DNA of 46,056 nt from Bradymonadaceae bacterium (GTDB taxonomy: Bacteria > Myxococcota_A > Bradymonadia > Bradymonadales > Bradymonadaceae): contig JBFIHF010000012.1 of NCBI GenBank assembly GCA_041601915.1, forward strand, positions 1-46,056, written 5' to 3'. The position numbers and the translations under genes were made by a program. The notes beneath the pieces are model-generated. The model was not told where the DNA came from and searched no databases. It worked only from the letters and a program-made list of their open reading frames with translations. Shown one piece after another: positions 2,540-45,837 of this stretch. How positions within the stretch are numbered: position 1 is the first letter of the stretch; every line of letters starts with the position of its first letter.

Positions 2540-4501
2540 ATGATGACGCCTCTCGCCTTCGGTACCCAACTCGATACTGTGTCTGACGACGTCGACCATA
2601 AGTTGTCCCACGACACGCCGACCTTGAGGTCGCTCGTGACGCCCGGCGACGAGGCGATCGGCGGGGACGATTCGCCCGATGCGCTGGTGATCAAGGTCTG
2701 CCGATCGTGCACGCGGTCCGCGCCCGACGACGCGGACTTTTGCCCGGAGTGCGGCGGCGACCTCGTCTCGATTCGGCGTGTCCCGGACATGTATCTGGAA
2801 GAGGTGATCGGCGGGAAGTACCGCATCGTCGAGAAGGTGGGCCAGGGCGGCATGGGTGTCGTGTACCTGGCGCGCAACGACGAGCTCGGCCAGAAAGTCG
2901 CGGTGAAGTTCCTGTCGCAGAAGTTCGCCGACGACGAGAATCTCGTCCTGCGGTTTCTCAACGAGGCGAAGAGTTACTGCCGGGTCAATCACCCCAACGC
3001 GGTGACCCTGCTCGACTACGGTCAACATGGTGACGGCGGGCCGCTGTTCATCATCACCGAGTTCATCGAAGGCAAGAACGTCACGGAGACGCTCAAGGAT
3101 CGCGGGCCGCTGCCGGCGGACACGGTGCTCGACCTCGGGTCGCAGATCGCCGAGGTGCTCTCCGCGGCGCACAGTCAGGGGGTGATCCACCGCGATCTGA
3201 AGCCCGACAACATCATGTTGATGCCGCTTTCGCGGGGCCGCTACGCGGTCAAGGTGCTCGATTTCGGGATCGCGAAGATCGTCGACGAAGAGGAGGGACC
3301 CAACACGGAGACCGGTTCGGTGTTCGGCACGCCGGAGTTCATGTCGCCCGAACAGGCCCGTGGCGACGAGGCCGACGGGCGATCGGACATCTACGCGCTG
3401 GGCGTGATCCTGTTCTACATGATCACCGGCAAGCTCCCGTTTCGGGGCAAGAACAAGCTGGTCGTGCTGAACATGCAGCTCAATGACCCGCCGCCGCGGC
3501 CGCGGGAAGTGCTGCCGACCACCGATCTGTCGGCCCGATTCGAGACGGTGATCATGAAGTGCCTCAACAAGGGGCCGAATCAGCGCTACGCGTCGGCCGA
3601 TGACCTGCTGGAGGCGTTTGAGGAGCTACGCGTGCCCAGCGGCAGCGCGACCTCGCGCGTGGGGACCGTGCGTGAAACCGCCGCCACACCTCGGCTGCTC
3701 GATAGCGCGGAGGGCCACTGGGAGGAGATTCACTCCCACGGTGAGACGCTTGCTTCCCTGGAGAACTCGGTCGTCGAGTGGGAAGTCGAGTCGATCGAGA
3801 TGGGTCGCCAGCACGACACGGGGCGAGCCCCGCCGCCCGATCGTGGCCCGGGAGCGGTGTCGATTGCGGTGTTGATCGTGGCGGTACTCGCCGTGGCGGC
3901 GCTGTTGTGGCTGGCGCTGGCCGATGATGCGCCTCCGGCCTCGCCCACCCCCAACGAGGCCGTTGAAGACGATCGCACGGAGCAGGTCGATGCCTCGCAC
4001 CGGGACGCGGTGATCGGGATCGTGCGCCGACTGATCGAAGACGGGAAGCTCGAGGACGCGCGCACGACCTATGACTACTCGCCCGTGAGCGATTCGGAGG
4101 CGCGCAAGACGTTGAACCGCGAGCTCACAGCGCTGGAGCGGGTCGGCCGCGATCTCGATGCCGCAATCGCCGCGAAAGATTGCGGGAAGGCCGCGGGGAT
4201 TGCCGCGAGCGTGGCGACCAAGGGTGTTCGCCTCAAGTTCGGCGAGCGTGTCACCGCGTGTCAGGCCGCGGTGAACCCGGTCGTTGCGCCGGCGCCGGCG
4301 CCAGACAAGCAGCCCGTGGTCGAACAACCTCCGGTTCCCGTGGTCCGCCCCAATCCTCAACCCAAACAGGATCCGAAGCCCACACCAGAGCTCGATCCAG
4401 AGCCGGATCCGCCCGTCGTCGAGGCTGAGACCAGCCCGAAACCTGCCAGCGAGAGCGTGCCCGACGACATGACGCTGCCGCCAAAAACACTCGACGATTA
4501 G
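2540..4501 (+). CDS. Membrane-spanning Ser/Thr protein kinase. It has an N-terminal Zn-ribbon, the kinase domain, one TM helix and an extracytoplasmic domain with a Pro-rich tail.
   Basis: The kinase motifs are canonical: GQGGMGVVY, VAVK, HRDLKPDNIM, DFGIAKI and APE-like SPEQ. The N-terminal Zn-ribbon is CRSCTRS...CPECGG. The TM segment is AVSIAVLIVAVLAVAALLWLALA. The start could instead be the in-frame ATG at 2516. Confidence 0.85.
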   Translation: MMTPLAFGTQLDTVSDDVDHKLSHDTPTLRSLVTPGDEAIGGDDSPDALVIKVCRSCTRSAPDDADFCPECGGDLVSIRRVPDMYLEEVIGGKYRIVEKVGQGGMGVVYLARNDELGQKVAVKFLSQKFADDENLVLRFLNEAKSYCRVNHPNAVTLLDYGQHGDGGPLFIITEFIEGKNVTETLKDRGPLPADTVLDLGSQIAEVLSAAHSQGVIHRDLKPDNIMLMPLSRGRYAVKVLDFGIAKIVDEEEGPNTETGSVFGTPEFMSPEQARGDEADGRSDIYALGVILFYMITGKLPFRGKNKLVVLNMQLNDPPPRPREVLPTTDLSARFETVIMKCLNKGPNQRYASADDLLEAFEELRVPSGSATSRVGTVRETAATPRLLDSAEGHWEEIHSHGETLASLENSVVEWEVESIEMGRQHDTGRAPPPDRGPGAVSIAVLIVAVLAVAALLWLALADDAPPASPTPNEAVEDDRTEQVDASHRDAVIGIVRRLIEDGKLEDARTTYDYSPVSDSEARKTLNRELTALERVGRDLDAAIAAKDCGKAAGIAASVATKGVRLKFGERVTACQAAVNPVVAPAPAPDKQPVVEQPPVPVVRPNPQPKQDPKPTPELDPEPDPPVVEAETSPKPASESVPDDMTLPPKTLDD

Positions 4502-4536
4502 GGCGCCCTCAAAGGTGATCACTTAAGGTGCCGCGA

Positions 4537-4865
4537 ATCCGCTGGTCTGCTCAATAATCCCCTATCCGCCGGTCCGCCGGTCCGCCGGTCCGCCGGTCCG
4601 CCGGTCCGCCGGTCCGCCGGTCCGCCGGTCCGCCGGTCCGCTGGTCTGCTGGTCGCCGGTCAAATTCAAACTAAGACCCACACTCGGTTCATGGAGCCAC
4701 CACGCGAAGCGTCGGAGCAACCTCGAGCCTGCTGGTGAACCGCGGCCTCGCCCGTGGAGCGCGAGTGCCTCGTGCGCTTCGCGTGGTGGTTCTGTAGTTG
4801 GTGCGTGGGTCTTAGTTTGAAATTGACCAGCAGACCAGCAGACCAGCGGACCAGCGGAGCGGAAC
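4537..4865. repeat. Long palindromic (hairpin) repeat element, copy A. Arms start GTTCCGCTGGTCTGCTGGTC...GGTCAAATTCAAACTAAGACCCAC and the inner stem is CCACCACGCGAAGCG/CGCTTCGCGTGGTGG. The left arm carries an expanded (CCGGTCCG)n octamer tract.
   Basis: Reverse-complementing the right arm (4801-4865) reproduces the left arm (4628-4683) almost base-for-base. A second copy of the same architecture is at 41207-41419. Confidence 0.8.
4562..4641. repeat. Octamer microsatellite (CCGGTCCG), about 9-10 units, embedded in the left arm of palindromic element A.
   Basis: Perfect tandem units are visible in the sequence. Copy B of the element has only 3 units of the related GCTGGTCT motif, so the tract appears expanded here. 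Confidence 0.9.
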
Positions 4866-4983: not shown

Positions 4984-5487
4984 TCAGCGCAACACGATGA
5001 CGGTTTTCGCGAGCGCGCTCTGCCCGTACCCGCGGCTGAACACCATCAAGTACTTTCGGTTCGGCGCGAACTTGGATCCGAGCTCGGCGTGCCCATTGAG
5101 GATCTTCTCCGTGCGATCGGAAGGGTAGAAGGTGAAGGTGTCCACCAACTGCTGGGTGCCAGGATTCGTGACGTCGTAGAACGAAATCGCGGCCTGCAAG
5201 GACGCCACCGGCTTGGGCAGGAACGCCATGTACTCGAACTCCCACTTTCCCGATTCGTTGGCGGTGATCTCGTGGGTGTTGACGCTCTTCATGTGCTTGT
5301 ACATCTCATCGTCGCTGCCGAAGCGCGACGGGAAGCGTTTGGTGCTCACCACGATATCGCCGTTCAGCCTCGAAATCCCGCCCTTGGCCGACGCGGGGGA
5401 GCTGATGAGGACGAAGCTCAAGGTGAGCAACAGGCTGATCATGGTGGAAAAGGCGCGATTTTTCTGCAGCTGACGAGTTCGCAACAC
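4984..5487 (-). CDS. Small secreted protein of unknown function, 167 aa, with a predicted signal peptide.
   Basis: A GTG start at 5487 is preceded by AGGAG with a 6-nt spacer. The N-terminus has a positively charged n-region plus MISLLLTLSFVLISSPASA. No recognisable domain was found. The GC content is visibly lower than in neighbouring genes. Confidence 0.6.
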   Translation of the reverse strand: MLRTRQLQKNRAFSTMISLLLTLSFVLISSPASAKGGISRLNGDIVVSTKRFPSRFGSDDEMYKHMKSVNTHEITANESGKWEFEYMAFLPKPVASLQAAISFYDVTNPGTQQLVDTFTFYPSDRTEKILNGHAELGSKFAPNRKYLMVFSRGYGQSALAKTVIVLR

Positions 5488-5732
5488 GACGATCTCCTGG
5501 TGGGCGGTTCAGTGTGACGGCGCTGGCCGGAATGAGTATACGGGGCTGAGTCCCGAATTCTCAACCCAGACCGTGAGCTCTTTGGTGACGGCCGGTTCAG
5601 ACGGGCATGTTGGCGGCAAATTCAGTAGGATCTCATGTCCATTTGCGATGTTCGGGCGGTTGCGCGGTGCCCGGTGATCTGATAGTCAACCAACCGCTTC
5701 GCCGCGAGGTTCGGCGCCCTGAGGAGAACGGC

Positions 5733-7841
5733 GTGCTCTGTCATCAGTGTGGAAGTCCGGTCGACACGCGGGAAGGGGCGTGTGCGAATTGCGGTGCCGA
5801 ACTGAAGGGCGCGCGCCGCCTGAAGCTCACCGAGTCTCGGGGTCTGCGAATTTCGCAGGAGTTGAAGGCGATTCGACTCGAGGCGCAGCTGTTTCCGCCC
5901 GGCGAGGAAGTCGCGAAACGCTTCGTGCTCGGCGAAATGTTGGGCAAGGGTCCCTTCGGCGAAGTGTATCGGGCGCGCGATACCGCGATCGACGCCGAAG
6001 TAGCGGTCAAGATCTTCGCTGCCGAAGTGCTGAAGACCCCGCTGGACGAAGAGCGTTTTCTGCAAGCGACGCGGGCCGGTCGGCGGCTGACGCAGCAGAA
6101 CGTGGTGCGCCTTCACGACTCCGGCGTGCACAAGAGCCACCCCTGGGTGTCGATGCAGTTGCTCGAAGGATTGAGCCTGCGCAAAGTGCTCGACCTTCGA
6201 AAGTCGAAGAATGAGACGTTCACCCTCGCGGAGCTCGAGCCGGTGGTCACGCAGGTGACCCTGGCGCTTCAGCACGTGTCTCGGGATTTCCCGCACGGCG
6301 ATCTGAAGCCAGAGAACATCGTGTTCCTGCCGGAACTGATCAAGATGACGGATTCGTTCCTCCTGGCGGCGTTGCCGGCCAAGGCGATCATCCCGCGTTT
6401 GCGGGAGAATCCGTATTTTGCGCCGGAACTCCACGCCGAGAAGACCGATCCCACGCCGCGCGCCGACGTCTACAGCGTGGGTGTGATCATCGGTGAGATG
6501 ATGTTCGGGCCGGACTACACCCCGGGTTCGCGCAGCGGTGGCGAGCTGGGCGGGGTCGACGCGTTGGTCAAACGTGCGACCGCGTTTGATCCATCGGAGC
6601 GGTATCCGTCGGTGGAAGCGTTGAGTGAAGATCTCGCGACGCTCATCGATACGGGAAGCCTGCTGGAGAAGGGAGCGACGGGTCCGGCCGCGTTCAAGCC
6701 ACCGCCGCCTCCACCGCGAAAGGCCACGCCCACGTTGCCACCGGCGCCGCCGCCAGGCCCGGCGCCATCGGAGGCCTCGGAGGCCGAGGAAGTCGCCACG
6801 GTCGAGTACAATCGTGATCTGGCGAAGAAGCTGCAGGACGACATCTTGACCCGCGAAGTTGGGCGTACGGTGCCGGCGGGGACGAGTCGGACCGTCACGG
6901 CGGCGGTGCCCAAGCCGTCGGGCCCGATCCCCGCTCCGCGCCCCGTGCAGAGCGATGCGAGCCTGAAGACGGGATTGATCGTAGGCGTCGTGGTGTCCCT
7001 CCTCGTGGCGGGGGGCGTCCTGCTGCGCCCCAGCGGCGATGTCGAGCACATCGGCGAGCCACCGGTCGAGATCGGCGAATCGCCGAAGCCCCCGACCCCG
7101 GCGCCGGTCGAACCGGTGGTCGTGGCCGATGCCCCGTCGGTCGAGACCACCGCGCAGGTCGCGTTGGACAAGGTGGGTGTGGCTCAAGGCGCGGCCGTGG
7201 CCGCGCTGATCCCGCCGGTCGAGGCGGTGGACCCCACGCCAGAGCAGACCAACGGCACGACGACTCCAGATGTCGTCGAGCCGGTGCCGGTGAAGCCGGT
7301 GAAGCCCGACGCCGTCAAGACGGTCGAGACGCCGACGAAAGTGGAGAAGCCGGTCGCGACGGGCACCGACTGCGCGGGTGGAATGAAGCTCGTGAAGTCG
7401 TCCAAGATCGGCAACTACTGCATCGACGCCTACGAGTACCCGGGAAGCGGCAGCGTGCCGAAGACGGGCGTCACGTGGTTCCAAGCCAAGAAGTCCTGCG
7501 AGAGCGCCGGCAAGCGCCTGTGCGAGCTCAAGGAGTGGCGCGCCGCCTGCGGGTCGAAGTACCCCTACGGCACGCGCCACAAGCCGGATGGCTGTAACAC
7601 GGCGGACGAAGACGGGTTCGAACGTTCCGCCGCCAAGTCGGGCGCGTTCAAAGACTGCCGCAGTCGCAGCGGGACCTACGACATGGTCGGCAACGCGCAC
7701 GAGTGGGTCGAAGAGCAGCGCATCGCCGGCGGCGGCTACGAGTCGGACGAAGACGTGGGGTCCTGCCGGTATTCGTCCCCGAAATCACCGGGCTCGTCGG
7801 CGGCGTACATTGGCTTCCGCTGCTGCGCCAGCCCCAACTAA
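5733..7841 (+). CDS. Ser/Thr-kinase-like transmembrane protein with an N-terminal Zn-ribbon and a C-terminal periplasmic FGE-sulfatase (SUMF1/formylglycine-generating-enzyme-like) domain. Its catalytic motifs are atypical.
   Basis: A GTG at 5733 is preceded by GAGGAG with a 6-nt spacer. The Zn-ribbon is CHQCGSP...CANCG. The Gly-loop is GKGPFGEVY and the lysine motif VAVKIF, but the catalytic loop is HGDLKPEN (not HRD) and TDSF replaces DFG. There is a Pro-rich linker and a TM segment LIVGVVVSLLVAGGVLL (~6970-7026). The last ~190 aa (...NYCIDAYEYP...GTYDMVGNAHEWV...FRCC) match the FGE-sulfatase fold. Confidence 0.8.
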   Translation: MLCHQCGSPVDTREGACANCGAELKGARRLKLTESRGLRISQELKAIRLEAQLFPPGEEVAKRFVLGEMLGKGPFGEVYRARDTAIDAEVAVKIFAAEVLKTPLDEERFLQATRAGRRLTQQNVVRLHDSGVHKSHPWVSMQLLEGLSLRKVLDLRKSKNETFTLAELEPVVTQVTLALQHVSRDFPHGDLKPENIVFLPELIKMTDSFLLAALPAKAIIPRLRENPYFAPELHAEKTDPTPRADVYSVGVIIGEMMFGPDYTPGSRSGGELGGVDALVKRATAFDPSERYPSVEALSEDLATLIDTGSLLEKGATGPAAFKPPPPPPRKATPTLPPAPPPGPAPSEASEAEEVATVEYNRDLAKKLQDDILTREVGRTVPAGTSRTVTAAVPKPSGPIPAPRPVQSDASLKTGLIVGVVVSLLVAGGVLLRPSGDVEHIGEPPVEIGESPKPPTPAPVEPVVVADAPSVETTAQVALDKVGVAQGAAVAALIPPVEAVDPTPEQTNGTTTPDVVEPVPVKPVKPDAVKTVETPTKVEKPVATGTDCAGGMKLVKSSKIGNYCIDAYEYPGSGSVPKTGVTWFQAKKSCESAGKRLCELKEWRAACGSKYPYGTRHKPDGCNTADEDGFERSAAKSGAFKDCRSRSGTYDMVGNAHEWVEEQRIAGGGYESDEDVGSCRYSSPKSPGSSAAYIGFRCCASPN

Positions 7842-7860: not shown

Positions 7861-9174
7861 ATGCTCGCGCGCTACGCCCGCCCCCAGATGACGGAGCTGT
7901 GGACTGAGGAGCACAAACTCGCGCTGTGGTTTGAGATCGAACTCGCCGCGGTGGAGGGATGGTCCGCGGAAGGGCTGGTCCCGGCCGAGGCCGCAGCGCA
8001 CATCCGCGAGCGGGCGGTGCTGGATGTGGCGCGGGTCCTGGAGATCGAGCAGGTCACGCGGCACGACGTCGCCGCGTTCGTGCAGTCGCTCGAAGAGAGC
8101 GTCGGCGCCGAGCACGGTCGCTGGATCCATTTCGGGATGACGTCGAGCGATGTGCTGGACACCGCGTTCGCGATCCAGTTGCGCGACGCGGGGGACTTGC
8201 TGCTCGCCGGTCTCGACGAGCTGCTCGGCGTGATCGAGACGCGTGCTCGGGAATTCGCGACGACCCCGAAGATCGGTCGGAGCCACGGGATTCATGCCGA
8301 GCCGACGACCTTCGGGCACACGCTGACGTCGTGGTACGCGGAGACGGCGCGGAATCGCGTGCGCCTCGCGGCGGCGCGGGAATCCGTCGCGTACGGAAAG
8401 ATCTCTGGTGCCGTGGGCACGTTTGCCAACGTGCCCCCGTCGGTGGAGGCGTTTGTCTGCGAGAAACTGGGGCTTTCGGCCGACCCGTGCTCGACGCAGG
8501 TCATCTCGCGCGATCGCCACGCCGAGTTCTTTCTGACGCTGGCGTTGATCGCGTCGAGTCTCGAGCGTTTCGCGATCGAGATCCGCCATATGCAGCGCAC
8601 CGAGGTGGGCGAAGCCGAGGAACGGTTCCACGTCGGGCAGAAGGGGTCGAGCGCGATGCCGCACAAGCGGAACCCGGTGCTCACCGAGAACATCACGGGT
8701 CTGGCGCGCACGGTGCGCTCCTACGCGATGGCCGCGATGGAGAACGTCGCGCTGTGGCACGAGCGCGACATCAGCCATTCGTCGGTCGAGCGCGTGATTG
8801 GTCCGGATGCGACGACATTGCTCGACTTCGCGCTGCACCGCATGATCGGGGTGGTCCGCGACCTCGTGGTCTACCCGGAACGGCTGCGCGCGAATCTCGA
8901 CCTGACCCGTGGCTTGCCGTTCAGTCAGGCGGTGCTGCTGGAACTGATCCGTGCCGGACTGTCTCGCGACGAGTCCTATCGGATGGTTCAGAAGGTCGCG
9001 ATGAACGCCTGGGAGAATGACCTGTCGTTCGAGACCGGCGCGCGCGCCGACACCGATATCGCCGGGCGTCTCAGCGCGGCGACTCTGGACAACTGTTTCG
9101 ACCTCGACCGCACGCTGTCGAGGTTGCCGGCCATCTACGACCGTGTCTTTCCCGCACCCCCGAGCGAGCAATGA
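7861..9174 (+). CDS. purB: Adenylosuccinate lyase.
   Basis: MLARYARPQMTELWTEEHKLALWFEIE... aligns along its whole length with B. subtilis PurB ([27 protein letters not shown]...). The fumarate-lyase signature GSSAMPHKRNP is present. The ORF-track start at 7588 is an unsupported N-terminal extension that overlaps the upstream gene. Confidence 0.9.
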   Translation: MLARYARPQMTELWTEEHKLALWFEIELAAVEGWSAEGLVPAEAAAHIRERAVLDVARVLEIEQVTRHDVAAFVQSLEESVGAEHGRWIHFGMTSSDVLDTAFAIQLRDAGDLLLAGLDELLGVIETRAREFATTPKIGRSHGIHAEPTTFGHTLTSWYAETARNRVRLAAARESVAYGKISGAVGTFANVPPSVEAFVCEKLGLSADPCSTQVISRDRHAEFFLTLALIASSLERFAIEIRHMQRTEVGEAEERFHVGQKGSSAMPHKRNPVLTENITGLARTVRSYAMAAMENVALWHERDISHSSVERVIGPDATTLLDFALHRMIGVVRDLVVYPERLRANLDLTRGLPFSQAVLLELIRAGLSRDESYRMVQKVAMNAWENDLSFETGARADTDIAGRLSAATLDNCFDLDRTLSRLPAIYDRVFPAPPSEQ

Positions 9175-9217
9175 AGCGAATCCTGGCGACCGATCACCCC
9201 CACACGAAGGTCTCGGT

Positions 9218-9466
9218 ATGAAGGCCCGCGTGTTGATCCGGAACAAGCGCGGGGTGTTCGATCCGCAAGGCAAGGTCGTGGAGGGCGGTTTGTTGCGCCT
9301 GGGGTACGACGCGGTGAAGTCCGTGCGCGTCGGCAAAGTCGTCGAGATCGAACTCGACGCCACCGACGAGGCGCAGGCGACGGCCCAGATCGACCAGATG
9401 TGCGCGCAGTTTCTGGTGAATCCAGTGATCGAGGAGTACTCGATCGAGTTCGAGGACCGGGCGTGA
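9218..9466 (+). CDS. purS: FGAM synthase PurS subunit.
   Basis: An 82-aa product [25 protein letters not shown]... typical of PurS. It sits directly upstream of purQ with a GTGA overlap. Confidence 0.85.
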
Positions 9467-10134
9467 AATTCGGAATCGTGGTGTTCCCGGGCTCGAACTG
9501 CGACCGCGACTGTCATCACGCCGTGACGCACGCGCTGGGCGAGGACGCCGAGTACGTGTGGCATCGCGAGACCACCGTTGACGGCTTTGACGCGCTCATC
9601 ATTCCGGGCGGCTTCTCCTATGGCGACTACCTGCGCTGCGGGGCGATCGCGAAGTTGAGTCCCGTGATGGACGCAGTGCGCGACTTTGCGGAGCGCGGCG
9701 GGCCGGTGGTCGGGATCTGCAACGGCTTTCAGATCCTGTTGGAGTGCGGACTGCTGCCGGGCGCGATGTTGCGCAATCGCTCGTTGCGCTTCATTTGCAA
9801 GCCGGTGCAGCTGCGCGTCGCCACGACGCGCACGGCGTTCACGTCGGCGTACTCCCTCGGACAGGTTGTGACGATCCCGATCGCGCACGCGGAGGGCAAC
9901 TACACGATCGACGCCGACGGACTCGCGCGACTGCGCGACGAGGATCGCGTCGTGCTCGAGTATCTCGACAACCCCAATGGCAGCGCGGGCGATATTGCCG
10001 GCATCTGTAACGGTCGCGGGAATGTCGTCGGGCTGATGCCACACCCGGAGCGCGCCGCGGAGGCGGCGCTGGGTAGCACGGACGGCCTCGCCCTGCTTCA
10101 GAGCGCGGCTTCGTGGGTGGGAGGTTCGCGATGA
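9463..10134 (+). CDS. purQ: FGAM synthase glutaminase subunit PurQ.
   Basis: [17 protein letters not shown]...GICNGFQIL is a class I glutamine amidotransferase with the catalytic Cys. The GTG start overlaps the purS stop, and the stop overlaps the purL ATG (ATGA). Confidence 0.85.
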
Positions 10135-12338
10135 CGGTGACGCGTGAGATGGTGCACGAACACGGCTTGACGGACCTCGAGTACGACCACGCGCTGAACG
10201 TCCTCGGCCGCACGCCGACGCTGACGGAGCTCGGCATCATCAGTGTGATGTGGTCGGAACACTGCTCCTACAAGTCCAGTCGGATTCACCTCGCGACGTT
10301 GCCCACCGACGGGCCGCAGGTCGTTCAGGGGCCCGGCGAGAACGCCGGTGCGGTCGATATCGGTGGCGGGCTCGCCGCGGTGTTCAAGATGGAGTCGCAC
10401 AACCATCCCAGTTTCATCGAGCCCTACCAGGGCGCGGCGACGGGCGTCGGCGGCATCCTGCGCGACGTGTTCACGATGGGCGCGCGCCCAATCGCGAACC
10501 TCAATAGCTTGCGGTTTGGTCGGATCGACCATCCGAAGACTCCGCACCTGTTCTGGGGCGTGGTGGGCGGCATCGCTGGGTATGGCAACTGCGTCGGCGT
10601 CCCGACGGTCGGCGGCGAGATCTACTTCGACAGCTGCTACGACGGGAACATCCTGGTCAACGCGTTCACGTTGGGGGTCTGTCCGACGGACGGGATCTTC
10701 AAGGGCATCGCCGCGGGCATCGGGAATCCGGTGTTCTACGTCGGGGCCGGGACGGGGCGCGACGGGATTCACGGGGCGACGATGGCGTCCGCGGAGTTCG
10801 ACGCGGACTCCGATGAGAAGCGCCCCACGGTGCAGGTCGGCGACCCCTTTCGCGAGAAGCTGCTCATCGAGGCGTGCCTCGAGTTGATGCAGACCGGCGC
10901 GATTGTCGGGATCCAGGACATGGGAGCGGCGGGCCTCACCAGTTCTTCGGTCGAGATGGCCGATCGCGGCAAGGTGGGGCTGCTGCTCGACATCGACCGC
11001 GTGCCGATGCGCGAGGACGGCATGACGGCCTACGAGGCGATGCTCTCCGAGTCCCAAGAGCGAATGCTGGTCGTCATCGAAGAGGGCCGTGAGGACGAGG
11101 TCCAGCGCGTGTTCCAGAAGTGGGAACTCGAGTGGGCGCAGGTCGGTGAAGTCATCGAGGAGCAAGTGCTTCGGGTGATGCAGCACGGTGAGGTACAGGC
11201 GGAGCTGCCAGTGGGGCTGCTCACGTCCGACGCCCCGCAGTACGATCGTCCGCGGTCGCGGCCGCGATACCTCGACGCGCTGTCTTCGCCGCCGATCGAC
11301 GCGCCGGTCTCCCTGGAGGCCGCGTTCATCGAGCTGCTGTCGAGCCCGAACATCGGATCGCGCGCGCCGGTTTGGGAACAATACGACCACATGGTGGGCG
11401 TGGGGACCGTCGTCAATCCGGGGCAGGCCGGCGCCGCGGTCCTTCGGATCCCGGGGACGGACCGCGCGGTGGCGCTCGCCGTGGATTGCAACAGCCGCAA
11501 GGTCTACGTCAACCCGCGCGAGGGCGCGCGCCATGCGGTCGCGGAGTGTTCACGCAACGTCGCATGCACGGGGGCACGACCGCTGGGCACGACCGATTGT
11601 CTGAACTTCGGCGACCCCACCGTTCCCGAAGTGATGTGGCAGCTCGTCGAGGCGATCGCGGGGCTCGGCGAAGCCTGTCGCGCGCTCGACGTGCCGATCG
11701 TCGGAGGCAATGTGAGCCTCTACAACACCACGGACGGCGTCAGCATCTACCCGACACCGACTGTTGCGGTCGTCGGTGCCTTCGAGCAGCCGATTGGCCG
11801 CGACGAGCGCGGCGACGTGGGCTTCGTGGCCGGGAGCTGCCAGGCCGCCCACGACGCGGTCGTGCTGCTGGGCGCCACGGATGCGAGCGACCTCGGCGCG
11901 TCCGAGTACTTGTTTCTGAGGACGGGCTCGATTGGCGCCTCGATTCCGCGCATCGACCTCGACGCGGAGGCGCGGCTGCAACAGCTCGTGCGGAGCCTCG
12001 TGGCGGCGCGCTCGATCCGCAGCGCACACGACTGCGCTGAGGGCGGCCTCGGGATCGCGTTGGTGGAGACTGTCCTGGGCACCCCGTTCGGTATCGAGCT
12101 GGAGCTCGAGCCGATCGACCGACCGGATCTGTGGCTGTTCAGCGAGTCACCCTCGCGGGTCATCGTCTCGACGCCCAGCGCTGATACGGTACTGGCGGCG
12201 GCGGCGGCGGCGGGCGTCCCGGCGACCGTGATCGGCACCGTCACCGATGTCGCGCTGCTTCGATGGCGGGGGTTGTTGGAGCTCGTGCTAGACGATGCGC
12301 GCGAGGCTCACGCCGGCGCGCTCGCCCGGCTCAGTTGA
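10131..12338 (+). CDS. purL: FGAM synthase subunit PurL.
   Basis: The N-terminus [50 protein letters not shown] is characteristic of PurL. The two AIRS-like halves are present. Confidence 0.9.
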
Positions 12339-28965: not shown

Positions 28966-30074
<1,109 letters not shown>

Positions 30075-30078
<4 letters not shown>

Positions 30079-41186: not shown

Positions 41187-41206
41187 TCTGACCAGCCTGC
41201 CGTCGT

Positions 41207-41419
41207 GTTCCGCTGGTCTGCTGGTCTGCTGGTCTGCTGGTCAACCTCAAACTCAAACTGGAGCCGCGCTCAAACCCCGGAGCCACCACGCGAAGCGCCA
41301 AGCCCAGCCGTGGAGACGAGCTGCTCGACGCGTCGCGTGGTGGCATTCCGGCCGTAGTGCGGGTCCAGTTTGAGTTTGAAGTTGACCAGCAGACCAGCAG
41401 ACCCGCGGACCAGCGGAAC
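41207..41419. repeat. Long palindromic (hairpin) repeat element, copy B. It has the same termini (GTTCCGCTGGTCTGCTGGTC...) and inner core (GGAGCCACCACGCGAAGCG...CGCGTGGTGG) as copy A.
   Basis: The left arm at 41207-41270 and the reverse complement of 41355-41419 are near-identical. It lies between the convergent ogt and kinase genes. Confidence 0.8.
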
Positions 41420-41430
41420 AGAACGGCCCG

Positions 41431-44400
41431 CTAGTTCTCGATCAGGAGCTGCGCGACGTTGAGGATCTTGCGGTTCAAGGGCTTTGCCAGGTAGGTCCGG
41501 CGCAGCTCCTCGTCGTTGATCTTGTCGCGTCGATGGATGACCACCTCGCGAGCCCGTGTGATCGCCTGGCGGCGCTCGTCTTCGAACTCCGGGCCGTCCG
41601 GCAAGATCTGGGTATGGTGGTAGAGAATGTCCTCCAGCGAGAACACCTCACCCTCGTTGACCAACTCCAGCGCGAGGTTCGAGTGTTCGATGGCGCGCTC
41701 GCGTTTGCCCAGAATCTTGTGCGCGCGCGCCATGAGGCTGTGCGCGTACCCCATACCCCACTTCATGTCCGCTTGCTCGGAGCGCTCCAGCGCATCCTCG
41801 GCCTGCATCAGCGCGATGCGCGCGGTGTCGGTCGTCGCGGCGGCCAGATGGACCTGGGCGAGCTGGAGCGTGGCGTGAACGGACAGGTAGACGTTGGGGA
41901 TCGAGTCCGCGAGCCGTAGCCCTTCATGCAGCGACGACTCCGCCTTCTTGTGATCGCCTTCCTCGATGTGCAGCGAGCCCATCGAGATGAGACCGTCGGC
42001 GAGGTTCTGAATCGAGCCGCCGCGGCGCGCGAGGTAGATGCCGCGGCGCACCGATGTCTGCGCCTTGTCGTACTCGCCGCGCAGCAGATGGCAGTGACCG
42101 ATGTTGACGAGCAGCGTCGCCTCTTCCCCGCGATGGCCGAGCTGGCGGACGCGGGTCAGCGCGTCCTCGTAGCGGGCGAGCGCTTCGGAGAATTCGCCGA
42201 GGTAGGCGAGGGCGAGGCCGGCGTTGTTGAGCAGGTAGCGACGCCACTTTCGCAGGTCGAGTGATTCGGCGTACCCGAGCGCGTCCTGGTAGGCCTGCAG
42301 CGCCTCGTGATGGCGCCCGGCCTGGCGGTGCGTGATGCCGATCAGATTAAGCGCTCGCACGAGGCCCTCGGACCCCGCCGGGCCGTCTTGCGTGAACGTC
42401 TCGACGGCGCGTCGCCCAAGCTCGATCGCCTCGTCGCGTTTTCCCTCGTTCAGGAAGATCATCGCCTCCACGAGCGAGGCATGCGCGAGGTTCCCCGCGT
42501 CATCGTTGGCTTTGGCGATGTCGCGAGCGCGATGGGAGTACTCGCGCGCGCGCCGCAATTGCGATTGTTCGAACGCGAAGCGCGCCTGCTGGATCAGCGT
42601 ATCTGCTTGCTCACGCGCATCGCCGCGCTCGGTGGCGAGTCGTTCGAGCTCATCGAGCGCGGCGCGGCATTCGTCGCGCTGGCCCAGTTCGCCCAATGCG
42701 CGCGCGCGGATCTTGAGCGCTTCGTAGTGGAACTCGTCGCCCGGCGCCACGCGCTCGAGGACCTTGTCGATCAGGCGCAGCGACTCCGCCGCGCCGTACT
42801 GCTCCAGCGCGTCATCGGCGGCCTGAAAATAGAACGCCACGGAGCGATCCTTCTCGCCCGCGCCGTCGAAGTGACGCGCGATCAGAGCAGACCGGCTATG
42901 GGTGCCGCTCGCGTTCTCCAGCAGGTGGTCGGCGAGGCGGCGATGCAGCATCGCGGCCTCTTCGGGCAGCAGCCCGGCGGCTGCGACGTCCTGCGTCAGC
43001 GCGTTACAGAACGCAAACTCACGGGAGTGCGGCGCCGTCTGGTTCGGATCGAACGTGTCCACCTGCATGCCGTCGGTGCGATCGATGCGTTCGAGCAGCC
43101 CGAGCGTCACCAACTCCGCTAGCTCGATGAAAGGCTCGTCGGGCAGCACGAGACCCAGATCGGCGCCTTTGAACGGCGACCACAGGAACGCGACGCGCTG
43201 CAGTACGACCTTGAGGTGCAGCGGCAGCCGGTCGATGCGCCCGCCGATCAGCCCTTCGACGCTGGATGGCAACCACTGCGGCGCCTTCGTGCGATCCTTG
43301 AGCGAGCGCCGCTCACCGGTGTCACCCTTGAGCATCCCGCGGTCGCGCAGAACCTCGACGACCTCCTTGATGTATAGCGGGTTGCCGCCGGCGCGGCGCA
43401 GGATCTCGGTGGCGAACGAGTCGTCCTGAATGCGGTGCAGCCGCAGCAGATCGAGGACCAGCGCCGCGCTCTCCTGCTCCCCGAGCTCGTTGAGCCGCTC
43501 CACCGTGACGTGCTTGGCTTCGAGCAACGCCTCCCAGTGCGGCTCGCCGGCGTGGCCCGCGGTGTCGTCCGCGGTAAACAGCACCATCGCCGGGGCGGGG
43601 CGCGACGTGGAGAAGAACTGCGTAATGAACTGCAGCGTCATCGTGTCGATGTGGTGCGCATCGTCGAGGGCCAGGATCATCGGCTTCTTCTCGGCGAAGC
43701 GCGTCAGCACCTTCTGCAGCGACAGGAATATGCGGTCGCGCCGCTCGTCGCCCCCGAAGTCGTCGAGCGCCGCATCCGGCCACTTGATGTGGAACAGCGC
43801 GCCGAGGCTCTGCAACAACAGCGTGCGTTCGGCGTCGTCCTCCTCGGGAAACAGCGCCGAGACGCGCGTCATCAGCGTCGACCGTACGAGGCGCAGGTCG
43901 TCGCGATGTTCGAGCCGCAGGATGTCGGCGAGGAAGGTCGCCATCGAACTCAGCGGGACGTCGCGGTGATGCACGCCGACGACGCCACGCACGATCCGCA
44001 CGTTGCGCTGATCGAGGCCGCGCAAGAACTCCTCTACCAGCGTCGACTTTCCAATCCCCTGGCGGCCGACCACGAGCACCATCTGCGCGGTCTGCCCAAG
44101 GATCGTCTCGCGGTAGGTCTCGCGTAGCAGCTTCAGCGGGATCTCGCGGCCGTGAAACCGACTGTAGCTGCGCCGAAGCTCGACCAGCGCGTCTTCGCCG
44201 CTCTTGGGGCCGGTGAGCAGGTAGGCCTGCACCGCCTGGGAGTGGTCATCGTCGGGGTGCTCGACGCGATCGACGGTCTCGGCGTCGTAACGCCTGCGGA
44301 TCCGCCGGTAGACCTGCCCGCCGATCAGGACTTCGCGCGCCATCCCTGCGTGGGCGAGCCGCTCCGCGAGCTCGTTGCCACTGCCGAAGAACGACCACGA

Positions 44401-45837
44401 AAAGCGGCGCCCGGTCTTGTCGACCTCCTGCTCCAGCACGACGTCCCCGATCGCGATCCCGGCCGACAGGTTGATCGGGTACTCGAGGCTGTGGTTGATG
44501 CCCGCGACCGCCTCGTGCAGGTCGAGGGTCACGCGCACGGCGAGCTCGGCGTCGTTCTCCGACGAGACGGGGATGCCGAACAGCAGCACGAAGCCGTCTT
44601 CGTTCACGCGATGCACGACGGCGTCGCTCTTGAATGCGATGGAGTCCACGATGCGGGTGTAGGCCTGCAGCACTTGCAACCAGCGGTCCTGGCCGACCGC
44701 AGCCCGCATGTCGAACAGGCCTTGAAGCTCGCCCGCCACGATCACGACTTCCTTTCGTTCGCGGGAGTGGACCTCGAGGCGCGGGTCCATCTCGTCGACG
44801 ATCTTCGTGACGGGCGTGTTGGTACTGATCTCCATCGTTCCGCCCGTCACGGTGCGGATCATCGAGGTGTGGGCGCGCGTCGCCGATCCGGTGGCCGCGT
44901 ATCCGCCATGGGCGGCCGGGTCGATGCTGGACTCGATGCGCCGGAAGTAGGCGGACAGCGTGCCGGAGTCGTGCACCTGCTCTTGCGCGTACAGGATGCG
45001 CATCAGCTCGTGCTGCAGCTCACGCGCCGATTCGGGGCGGTCCGCCGGGTCGCGCGACAGCACCCGATAGACGAGCTCGATCAGCGTCTCCGAGATGTCG
45101 GCGTTGAGGCTCTTGATGTCCGGCACCACCGCGGACTTCACGAGGCTCATGATCTCGTCCTGCGAGCCGGCCTTGAACAGCGGGCGCCCACACAGCATCT
45201 CGAACAGCACGACACCGAGACTGAAGACGTCGCTGCGCTGGTCGACGGGCGTGCCCGACGCTTGCTCGGGGCTCATGTAGGCGAACTTGCCCTTCACCGT
45301 GTTCGGGTGGTGGTCGGCGACGAGGGTTGCCTTGGCGATCCCGAAGTCGACGATCTTGACGCTGCCATCCGTCGAGACGAGCACGTTCTGTGGGCTCACG
45401 TCGCGGTGCACGATGTTGAGCGCGCCGCCGTGTCGGTCCACCTTGGTGTGCGCGTAGTGCAGCCCCTTGGCCATCTCGGCCGCGATGAACACCGCATCGC
45501 CCACCGAAAAGCGGACCCCGGACTTCGCCGACGCGCTCATCAGGTGTCCGAGATCGGCGCCATCCACGTACTCCATCGCCAGGTAGTACGTGCCTTCGTG
45601 CTTCCCGAAGTCGTAGATCTGCACGATGTTGGGGTGGTTGAGGTCGACCGCGATCTTGGCTTCGGAGATGAACATCTCCACGAAACGCTGGTTCTCCGAG
45701 AACTCGGGCAAGATGCGCTTGATGACGAGAATCTTCTCCAGACCCTCGGCGCCAAAGCTCTTCGCGAGGAAGACCTCCGCCATGCCGCCGGTGCCGATCT
45801 TCTCGACGAGCTCGTATTTTCCGAAATCGCGCGCCAC
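41431..45837 (-). CDS. Multidomain Ser/Thr kinase, 1468 aa. Domain order is N-terminal active kinase, a class-III cyclase-homology domain (probably degenerate), a STAND/AAA P-loop NTPase and C-terminal TPR repeats.
   Basis: The GTG start is at 45835-45837. Kinase motifs are GTGGMAEVF, VIKRI, HRDVSPQNVLV and DFGIAKA. The cyclase-homology-like segment is ...VVHRVNEDGFVLLFGIPV...LSAGIAIGDVVL.... The P-loop is VVGRQGIGKST. The C-terminal ~500 aa are TPR-like. Confidence 0.8.
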   Translation of the reverse strand: MARDFGKYELVEKIGTGGMAEVFLAKSFGAEGLEKILVIKRILPEFSENQRFVEMFISEAKIAVDLNHPNIVQIYDFGKHEGTYYLAMEYVDGADLGHLMSASAKSGVRFSVGDAVFIAAEMAKGLHYAHTKVDRHGGALNIVHRDVSPQNVLVSTDGSVKIVDFGIAKATLVADHHPNTVKGKFAYMSPEQASGTPVDQRSDVFSLGVVLFEMLCGRPLFKAGSQDEIMSLVKSAVVPDIKSLNADISETLIELVYRVLSRDPADRPESARELQHELMRILYAQEQVHDSGTLSAYFRRIESSIDPAAHGGYAATGSATRAHTSMIRTVTGGTMEISTNTPVTKIVDEMDPRLEVHSRERKEVVIVAGELQGLFDMRAAVGQDRWLQVLQAYTRIVDSIAFKSDAVVHRVNEDGFVLLFGIPVSSENDAELAVRVTLDLHEAVAGINHSLEYPINLSAGIAIGDVVLEQEVDKTGRRFSWSFFGSGNELAERLAHAGMAREVLIGGQVYRRIRRRYDAETVDRVEHPDDDHSQAVQAYLLTGPKSGEDALVELRRSYSRFHGREIPLKLLRETYRETILGQTAQMVLVVGRQGIGKSTLVEEFLRGLDQRNVRIVRGVVGVHHRDVPLSSMATFLADILRLEHRDDLRLVRSTLMTRVSALFPEEDDAERTLLLQSLGALFHIKWPDAALDDFGGDERRDRIFLSLQKVLTRFAEKKPMILALDDAHHIDTMTLQFITQFFSTSRPAPAMVLFTADDTAGHAGEPHWEALLEAKHVTVERLNELGEQESAALVLDLLRLHRIQDDSFATEILRRAGGNPLYIKEVVEVLRDRGMLKGDTGERRSLKDRTKAPQWLPSSVEGLIGGRIDRLPLHLKVVLQRVAFLWSPFKGADLGLVLPDEPFIELAELVTLGLLERIDRTDGMQVDTFDPNQTAPHSREFAFCNALTQDVAAAGLLPEEAAMLHRRLADHLLENASGTHSRSALIARHFDGAGEKDRSVAFYFQAADDALEQYGAAESLRLIDKVLERVAPGDEFHYEALKIRARALGELGQRDECRAALDELERLATERGDAREQADTLIQQARFAFEQSQLRRAREYSHRARDIAKANDDAGNLAHASLVEAMIFLNEGKRDEAIELGRRAVETFTQDGPAGSEGLVRALNLIGITHRQAGRHHEALQAYQDALGYAESLDLRKWRRYLLNNAGLALAYLGEFSEALARYEDALTRVRQLGHRGEEATLLVNIGHCHLLRGEYDKAQTSVRRGIYLARRGGSIQNLADGLISMGSLHIEEGDHKKAESSLHEGLRLADSIPNVYLSVHATLQLAQVHLAAATTDTARIALMQAEDALERSEQADMKWGMGYAHSLMARAHKILGKRERAIEHSNLALELVNEGEVFSLEDILYHHTQILPDGPEFEDERRQAITRAREVVIHRRDKINDEELRRTYLAKPLNRKILNVAQLLIEN

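Follow-up and report, generated by a model that had tools for sequence, protein, structure and literature searches.

A probable pseudokinase receptor with a non-catalytic FGE-fold ectodomain, encoded next to a canonical kinase gene in a Bradymonadaceae bacterium

Bacterial pseudokinases are barely explored. An atlas of bacterial serine/threonine kinases describes seven pseudokinase families (CP1, DYD, DLHK, GLW, and ActPs1-3), in all of which substitutions of the VAIK lysine occur, and it mentions an architecture with an FGE-sulfatase domain (FGE, formylglycine-generating enzyme) for the Proteo1 family only (bioRxiv 10.1101/2025.01.12.632604); the companion review mentions neither FGE, nor Zn-ribbons, nor Myxococcota. 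Receptor kinases that combine Pkinase and FGE-sulfatase domains occur in Myxococcota, Cyanobacteria, and Proteobacteria, and consist of a cytoplasmic Hanks-type domain, one transmembrane (TM) helix, and an outer FGE fold that does not perform FGE chemistry, and they correspond to the Proteo1 architecture of this atlas. In Mycobacterium tuberculosis, the tail of the pseudokinase MviN recruits the FHA protein FhaA after its phosphorylation by the kinase PknB (PMC12599244), and a 2017 FEBS J paper on PknI of the same organism carries the words "inactive, pseudokinase-like conformation" in its title. A functional study of FGE-sulfatase kinases or of kinases from Bradymonadales was not found in the literature on these two groups. 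Here we describe a gene at positions 5733-7841 of a 46,056-nt stretch of DNA from a Bradymonadaceae bacterium (contig JBFIHF010000012.1 of assembly GCA_041601915.1), which was analysed as a whole and is called the window in the following. On balance, its product is probably a nucleotide-bound, non-catalytic pseudokinase receptor.

The gene codes for a protein of 702 amino acids (aa). Its GTG start at 5733 is preceded by the Shine-Dalgarno-like sequence GAGGAG and was preferred over an upstream ATG at 5607 because the orthologues begin with the same MLCxxCG; the translation from this start is identical to database protein P0001 of the same 46,056-nt contig. The GC content at third codon positions (GC3) is 0.81 and thus similar to that of other genes in the window, whose overall GC content is approximately 66%. 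From the N- to the C-terminus, the protein contains a four-Cys Zn-ribbon, a Hanks-type kinase-like domain, a Pro-rich linker, a TM helix, a second linker, and a domain of 157 aa with an FGE/C-type-lectin fold. Searches against Pfam identified Pkinase (E 2.4e-25, 89.9 bits with a cutoff of 31.7), a partial match to FGE-sulfatase (E 5e-13, profile positions 87-191 of 255), and a weak, sub-threshold match to Zn_ribbon_3. The features of the gene are as follows, with motif coordinates confirmed by re-translation:

5733-7841, + strand: whole gene, 702 aa (list of open reading frames (ORFs), GTG start with GAGGAG upstream, identical database protein P0001, Pfam domains)
5733-5804, + strand: N-terminal four-Cys Zn-ribbon, C3/C6/C17/C20, CxxC-x10-CxxC (Cys census, weak Pfam match, AlphaFold2 (AF2) model)
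5910-6662, + strand: Hanks-type kinase-like domain, aa 60-310 (Pkinase E 2.4e-25, AF2, Foldseek)
5943-5960, + strand: Gly-rich loop GKGPFG, aa 71-76, kept (G73 and G76 near-invariant in the family)
6009-6011, + strand: β3 lysine K93 (VAVK), kept (K in 95/96 relatives, one change on the tree)
6066-6068, + strand: αC-Glu position, occupied by Ala112 (StkP alignment, FLQATRA versus RFQREARA; Glu in 0/77 clade-1 sequences)
6294-6317, + strand: catalytic loop HGDLKPEN, non-RD, with Asp190 and Asn195 present (alignment, 96-sequence census)
6351-6359, + strand: D-S-F replacing DFG, Asp207 kept (Asp in 96/96, Phe replaced, an aromatic residue in place of Gly)
6795-6866, + strand: two juxtamembrane copies of T-x-[ED]-[YVF]-x-R, ATVEYNR at aa 355-361 and LTREVGR at aa 372-378 (regular-expression census)
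6969-7025, + strand: single TM helix, aa 413-431 (only strong hydropathy peak in the protein)
7368-7838, + strand: extracytoplasmic minimal FGE-sulfatase/C-type-lectin-fold domain with 10 invariant Cys, lacking the catalytic Cys pair

The single membrane anchor and the outer location of the FGE/SUMF1-fold domain, both proposed in the initial annotation of this DNA, agree with the hydropathy profile (Kyte-Doolittle mean of 2.49 for aa 413-431) and with the distribution of the 14 Cys residues, four of which are in the Zn-ribbon (positions 3, 6, 17, and 20) and 10 in the C-terminal domain. The topology is type I-like, with the Zn-ribbon and the kinase-like domain inside and the disulfide-rich lectin-fold domain outside.

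The protein belongs to the Hanks-type protein kinase superfamily (PF00069 fold). Its kinase-like domain is modeled by AF2 with a confidence score (pLDDT) of approximately 97, including a helical activation segment, and its best Foldseek matches are PknA, PknI, and PknB (E 1e-15 to 1e-17). The Pkinase score is 90 bits, compared to 168 bits for the neighbouring kinase encoded at 2540-4501. The initial annotation had reported an intact Gly-loop and VAVK lysine, a catalytic loop of the non-RD type, and a replacement of DFG by D-S-F, and all of these readings were recovered. In phmmer alignments with the solved structures of StkP and PknB, HGDLKPEN (aa 188-195) falls on HRDLKPQN and KMTDSF (aa 204-209) on KVTDFG. 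These alignments and the family alignment rule out that the activation segment had been mis-registered and that canonical HRD and DFG motifs were overlooked. In addition to these changes, αC-Glu is lost, a point beyond the initial annotation. Its position is taken by Ala112, and the canonical partner in the Lys-Glu salt bridge is thus missing. An APE motif is present at aa 230-232. The activation segment (aa 207-232) contains no Thr and its sole Ser is that of the DSF motif, in keeping with a non-RD domain whose switching does not involve phosphorylation of the loop.

A protein search retrieved approximately 95 proteins with the same architecture, and those with source names stem from Bradymonadales and other Myxococcota, as the initial annotation had expected from myxobacterial kinomes. 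Clade 1 comprises 77 close orthologues with the kinase-like domain (E below 1e-118), and all members with a source name are Bradymonadales (Lujinxingia, Persicimonas, Bradymonadaceae). Clade 2 is more distant, with about 19 proteins from other Myxococcota. The receptor family is restricted to Bradymonadia and other Myxococcota. Residues were counted for each catalytic position in 96 aligned kinase-like domains (MAFFT, N-terminal 400 aa), and changes were counted by Fitch parsimony on a neighbour-joining tree of these domains. The ligands of ATP and metal are nearly fixed: the β3-Lys and the catalytic-loop Asn (Asn195) are each found in 95 of the 96 domains, with one change on the tree, and the DFG-Asp (Asp207) is present in 96/96 with no change; the Gly-loop, which was left out of the tree counts, is retained across the family. 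The HRD-Arg occurs in none of the 96 sequences and is mostly replaced by Gly. At the position of the catalytic base, 43 domains have Asp, 42 have Asn, and 11 have other residues (T, A, F, G, L, S). The tree requires at least 33 changes at this position, at least 21 of which lie within the 77 clade-1 sequences and lead from Asp to another residue or back. The αC-Glu is absent from all clade-1 sequences (0/77, with Ala in 52) and present in 8/19 sequences of clade 2. In clade 1, the residue following the DFG-Asp is S, H, G, or T, with Phe in only 2/77 sequences, and the next position, which is Gly in canonical DFG, is Y or F in 77/77. Glu107, located five residues before the canonical αC-Glu position, is E or D in 74/77. 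The four Cys of the Zn-ribbon (AF2 pLDDT of approximately 87) are all kept in 51/51 clade-1 orthologues whose gene model covers the N-terminus. Closer relatives are 50-70% identical in the kinase-like domain, which shows no sign of decay.

Fixed ATP and metal ligands next to a drifting catalytic base suggest that selection preserves the binding of nucleotide and metal, and not the catalytic base. As Asp and Asn are freely exchanged at this base, phosphotransfer apparently is not what selection maintains. The 53 of 96 members that lack the HRD-Asp are pseudokinases by the triad definition, and judged from its sequences the family as a whole carries the signature of a nucleotide-binding pseudokinase. 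The initial annotation had wavered between a pseudokinase and a kinase with an unusual activation mechanism. The family data favour the pseudokinase-like side; the window protein itself keeps Asp190. A comparable pattern is known from HER3/ErbB3, where the catalytic Asp is changed to Asn and αC-Glu is lost, and from the JH2 domain of JAK, which has HGN; both are ATP-binding pseudokinases that work beside a canonical kinase. The family described here has kept the ATP-binding residues like both of them, its clade 1 has lost αC-Glu like HER3, and about half of its members have Asn in place of the catalytic Asp, which gives HGN as in JAK JH2. However, the homology is limited to the kinase superfamily, the window protein still has the Asp, and its partner would be encoded by a separate gene that is a candidate only.

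Compared with the catalogued bacterial families, the pattern of degradation is different: the ATP and Mg ligands are invariant and the catalytic base alternates between Asp and Asn, as is the pattern of HER3 and JAK JH2. The seven families share with the one described here a degenerate Hanks-type domain, their bacterial origin, and an often membrane-associated location, and in CP1, too, only a fraction of the members lack the HRD-Asp. Going by the published descriptions, which are the sole basis of this comparison, the family is set apart by its lysine (95/96); CP1 proteins contain COG3899 and no TM region, and Zn-ribbons, FGE-fold domains, and an origin in Myxococcota do not feature in the description of any of the seven. 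Conversely, COG3899, the activation-loop deletion, the GLW motif, and similar hallmarks of these families are not present in the family of the 5733-7841 product. This lineage is thus outside the seven catalogued families as described, although the kinase-FGE architecture itself is already known. In contrast to the known Pkinase plus FGE-sulfatase receptor kinases, it has an N-terminal Zn-ribbon and a shortened ectodomain of 157 aa with 10 Cys, and it lacks the RD Arg. Clade 1 additionally lacks αC-Glu and the Phe-Gly of DFG, and in the lineage as a whole the catalytic Asp appears to be dispensable in evolution. More distant kinase-FGE loci (L033, L047, L080) keep HRD and αC-Glu.

The ectodomain (aa 540-702) is modeled with a pLDDT of 95 from a 72-sequence alignment, in which its 10 Cys are invariant. 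It has the FGE-sulfatase fold, with a strong fold match to FGE. Human FGE contains two structural disulfides, which pair C218 with C365 and C235 with C346. In the phmmer alignment to this enzyme, C589, C606, C678, and C697 correspond to C218, C235, C346, and C365, respectively, and thus match both structural disulfides. Five disulfides would be expected in the ectodomain from its conserved Cys, which would fit an extracytoplasmic location. The initial annotation had left open whether the domain retains the Cys pair required for formylglycine generation or is a binding-only variant. According to the alignment and the Cys positions, the copper-binding catalytic pair (C336/C341 in the human enzyme) is absent, the stretch from C642 to C678 being free of any further Cys. 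The domain is therefore not an FGE but a binding-only variant, like SUMF2. It is also truncated: only profile positions 87-191 and the C-terminal strand are matched, and the first ~85 positions are missing from its 157 aa. Its best structural matches are TvpA, SUMF2, PorK, and ToxD, which are non-catalytic or differently catalytic members of the fold. Hence, the ectodomain is probably a non-enzymatic, ligand-binding module, and by analogy with what the fold binds elsewhere a glycan, an envelope component, or a peptide would be plausible ligand classes. It differs from SUMF2/pFGE, TvpA, Mtd, PorK/GldK, and PvdO, which comprise 260-290 aa as opposed to about 157 aa, by three extra predicted disulfides and by being tethered to a membrane-bound kinase-like domain and not diversified by a diversity-generating retroelement (DGR). 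In a profile search of genome contigs with the ectodomain, the matches listed were distant relatives, and most of these were mini-domains without a detectable upstream kinase-like region.

A receptor of this kind could function as follows. Outside the cell, the disulfide-locked, non-enzymatic FGE/C-type-lectin-fold module would bind a ligand. Inside, the kinase-like domain, having lost the RD Arg, αC-Glu, and the Phe-Gly of DFG, would hold ATP and Mg through the Gly-loop, Lys93, Asn195, and Asp207 and would work like HER3 or JAK JH2, either by switching conformation or as a scaffold. It would signal jointly with the canonical Zn-ribbon Ser/Thr kinase encoded upstream, and both T-x-E-[YV]-x-R motifs of the linker would serve as phospho-acceptor or docking sites for this kinase and its effectors.

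Several observations speak against a complete loss of catalysis. In the window protein, all three triad residues (Lys93, Asp190, and Asp207) are present along with Asn195, so that by the usual three-residue rule (VAIK-Lys, HRD-Asp, DFG-Asp) it is formally no pseudokinase, and its nearest relatives (P0002-P0008) also still carry the catalytic Asp. The non-RD kinases Bub1 (HGD) and Mps1 (HSD) and haspin, whose DFG is altered, are active, and Asp-to-Asn kinases such as HER3 can retain weak activity. Moreover, the conserved Glu107 could replace αC-Glu as a relocated salt-bridge partner. Weak activity of the window protein is possible, as Asp190 is kept. One could go further and regard the protein as an active but atypical non-RD receptor kinase, which would be driven by ligand-induced dimerisation, would need no phosphorylation of the activation loop, and would use Glu107 or another residue as a stand-in for αC-Glu and the aromatic residue of its DS-aromatic motif as the spine residue provided by the Phe of DFG. 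This is possible but rather unlikely. The retention of Lys93, Asp190, Asn195, and Asp207 in the window protein and P0002-P0008 would be in line with such a function, the high conservation of Glu107 and of the aromatic residue looks like compensation and not like decay, the activation segment devoid of Thr fits an enzyme that does not depend on loop phosphorylation, and active non-RD kinases do exist. The repeated switches of the catalytic base, in some relatives to T, A, F, G, L, or S, are hard to square with selection for phosphotransfer, however, and the Pkinase score is only about half that of the neighbour. If the protein were active after all, it would represent one more atypical non-RD receptor kinase. 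The degraded catalytic and regulatory motifs and the low Pkinase score could also indicate a decaying duplicate of the neighbouring kinase without a function of its own, but this is very unlikely: the ORF is intact and has a GC3 like that of other window genes, the same architecture occurs in Bradymonadales and other Myxococcota, with closer relatives 50-70% identical, many positions including the 10 Cys and the ATP ligands are invariant, and AF2 confidence is very high for both domains.

Two further alternatives concern the ectodomain. Source names of P0090 and P0093 include [quoted passage not shown], other relatives are named "SUMF1/EgtB/PvdO family nonheme iron enzyme" by NCBI, and such names, together with the Pfam match and the strong fold match, would suggest a kinase whose outer domain oxidises Cys residues in periplasmic sulfatases. 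As C678 corresponds to the structural C346 and the catalytic Cys pair is absent, FGE activity is rejected at the sequence level; the truncation of the domain, its non-catalytic or differently catalytic structural matches, and the lack of a sulfatase among the window ORFs scanned against Pfam likewise make this bifunctional enzyme extremely improbable. If the pseudokinase reading is confirmed, it would correct database names of the bifunctional type, which for this clade are probably wrong on both halves. The presence of TvpA, Mtd, and TaqVP among the top structural matches raises the question of whether the ectodomain is hypervariable and diversified by a DGR as in these proteins. Within the window, however, no template-repeat copy of 7350-7841 was found and no reverse transcriptase was noticed among the ORFs scanned, and the C-terminal segment, the usual target of DGRs, ranks with the best-conserved regions in the family (SCRYSS.K.PGSS..IGFRCC). 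Because of the missing template repeat and the conserved C-terminus, this exceedingly unlikely explanation is rejected for this window.

The pseudokinase reading assigns a role to the gene upstream, whose surroundings include the following features:

2540-4501, + strand: canonical Zn-ribbon Ser/Thr kinase, conserved neighbour and candidate partner (Pkinase E 4.9e-49)
4472-4498, + strand: extracellular C-terminal tail of this kinase, TLPPKTLDD (tail motif census)
4984-5487, - strand: small secreted protein of 167 aa with a signal-peptide-like N-terminus, between both kinase genes

All motifs of the upstream kinase are canonical (GxGxxG, VAVK, αC-Glu, HRDLKPDN, DFG). A canonical kinase is located directly upstream in 7/7 loci found through orthologues of the 5733-7841 gene, namely the window and L001, L002, L004, L085, L086, and L087, where the proteins are approximately 50-60% identical to the window protein. 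The gene order in these loci is pspA-like and HD/OB-fold genes on the - strand followed by the canonical Pkinase and the kinase-FGE gene on the + strand. The upstream kinases are highly conserved and canonical in 7/7 (GxGxxG, VAVK, FLNEA, HRDLKPDN, DFG), with the CxxC-x10-CxxC ribbon in 6/7. The initial annotation had taken the Zn-ribbon common to both window kinases as a sign of paralogy. The ribbon is indeed shared, with the same spacing (CxxC-x10-CxxC), and an old tandem arrangement may have existed. In contrast, a recent duplication of the upstream kinase is disfavoured, because the kinase domains are only 25% identical and the upstream kinase is closer to the third kinase of the window (E 8e-36) than to the 5733-7841 product (E 3.5e-13). 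That third kinase (41431-45837, - strand, 1468 aa) has a canonical Pkinase domain, a nucleotide cyclase domain, AAA_16, and TPR repeats, and no N-terminal Zn-ribbon. What is conserved is adjacency, rather than recent paralogy, and this suggests that the two genes are functionally paired or descend from an old tandem.

In the cytoplasmic Pro-rich linker, which is otherwise poorly conserved, one to three copies of T-x-[ED]-[YVF]-x-R were found by regular-expression census in about 74 of the 78 clade-1 proteins; clade 2 has no copy at this position. FHA domains read phospho-Thr with a hydrophobic residue at +3. The copies are candidate phospho-Thr or docking sites and should be taken as a lead and not as a result. 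The tail of the upstream kinase ends, after a long, acidic, and Pro-rich tether, in the motif [A/G/S/T]-L-P-P-[K/R]-x-[L/I]. Among the 120 best partner-kinase matches, 77 have an exact xLPP[KR] within the last 20 residues and approximately 12 more have close variants (LPPSEI, MPPK, EPPK), whereas the clearly non-orthologous kinases listed lack the motif. The tail may loosely resemble the x-x-P-x-R core of the sulfatase motif bound by FGE, and the peptide DDMTLPPKTLDD may be a candidate for docking to the ectodomain. A role of the LPP[KR] tail as a dedicated ligand of the ectodomain is weakened, since the tail is kept at loci without the kinase-FGE gene.

A more far-reaching and doubtful interpretation would be that the adjacent genes code for a receptor pair that is the bacterial equivalent of the HER3/EGFR type, in which the ligand-sensing pseudokinase allosterically controls the canonical kinase, is phosphorylated by it on the linker motifs, and recruits effectors. 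As an additional, speculative layer, the tail of the partner might dock as a pseudo-substrate in the FGE-fold domain, which lacks the catalytic Cys. The closest functional bacterial precedent, and the best functional analogy for both the pairing and the Thr motifs, would be MviN (Rv3910, ActPs3 family), which is likewise anchored in the membrane through a TM helix and carries its pseudokinase domain inside the cell and a binding domain outside. However, no catalytic motif is left in MviN and it fails to bind ATP, whereas the family described here conserves every ATP and Mg ligand. The two also differ in ectodomain fold, phylum, and Zn-ribbon, and their sequence relationship does not extend beyond the kinase fold. 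Joint signalling of the two window kinases faces a number of objections. Two loci reached via the partner kinase, L088 (Bradymonas sediminis) and L089, have the partner without the kinase-FGE gene, and that genomes keep the partner with its tail at such loci weakens the receptor-pair interpretation in particular. One clade-2 relative has no kinase gene upstream. In the window, 1.2 kb of DNA that includes a palindromic repeat and a gene on the opposite strand separates the two kinase genes, which are therefore not one operon. No FHA domain was found among the window ORFs scanned against Pfam, and all of the support for the pairing comes from adjacency. If confirmed, the pair would provide a tractable bacterial model of allosteric pseudokinase-kinase receptor signalling in a group of predatory bacteria.

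In B. sediminis (L088, 3110-9954), the orthologue of the partner is divergently adjacent to genes for an FHA-FHA protein and an FHA-T2SSE ATPase and is followed by the small secreted protein. The FHA genes hint at signalling of the partner kinase via FHA proteins. The small protein encoded at 4984-5487 has no Pfam or NCBIfam family and belongs to a family of 68 proteins, whose few source-named members are all Bradymonadales. It is located between both kinase genes in 4/7 loci, on either strand, and in the window its gene has a promoter-like site (5564-5535) and a terminator-like site (4948-4919) of its own. A homologue also adjoins the partner kinase in B. sediminis, where the kinase-FGE gene is absent. 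Thus, the small protein may or may not be part of the module. Downstream of the kinase-FGE gene, purB starts only 20 nt past the stop codon, with no terminator-like site between the two genes. It is followed by purS, purQ, and purL (7861-12338, + strand); purC, which lies between purB and purS in L002, L004, and L085, is missing here. The kinase-FGE gene is next to purB also in a distant clade-2 relative.

The repeat between the kinase genes (4531-4862) is one of two copies in the window of a long imperfect palindromic intergenic element, which looks like a repetitive extragenic palindromic (REP) element or a miniature inverted-repeat transposable element (MITE). In this copy, an inner inverted repeat of 57 nt separates arrays of the octamer TCCGCCGG/TCTGCTGG (about 11 tandem copies, 4549-4660) from their reverse complement (4825-4862); the other copy (41191-41435) has arms of 80 nt that are 88% complementary. 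Degenerate, tandem-like repeats of approximately 21-22 nt (CGGACCGTGCGCGTTCTCGGC and variants) are found at 126-540, just past the 3' end of the pspA-like gene. Radical SAM, Memo-like, and AMMECR1 genes occur in succession at 28966-31437 (+ strand), followed by an ORF for a vault-protein-like product of 768 aa (31568-33874, + strand; MVP_shoulder E 4.8e-15, Vault_3 E 1.5e-8). Finally, a 92-nt direct repeat (35894-36210; 77% identical, spacing of 225 nt), rich in TGC (Cys) codons, is spanned by two overlapping ORFs on the + strand, one of which (34873-36297) has no match in Pfam.

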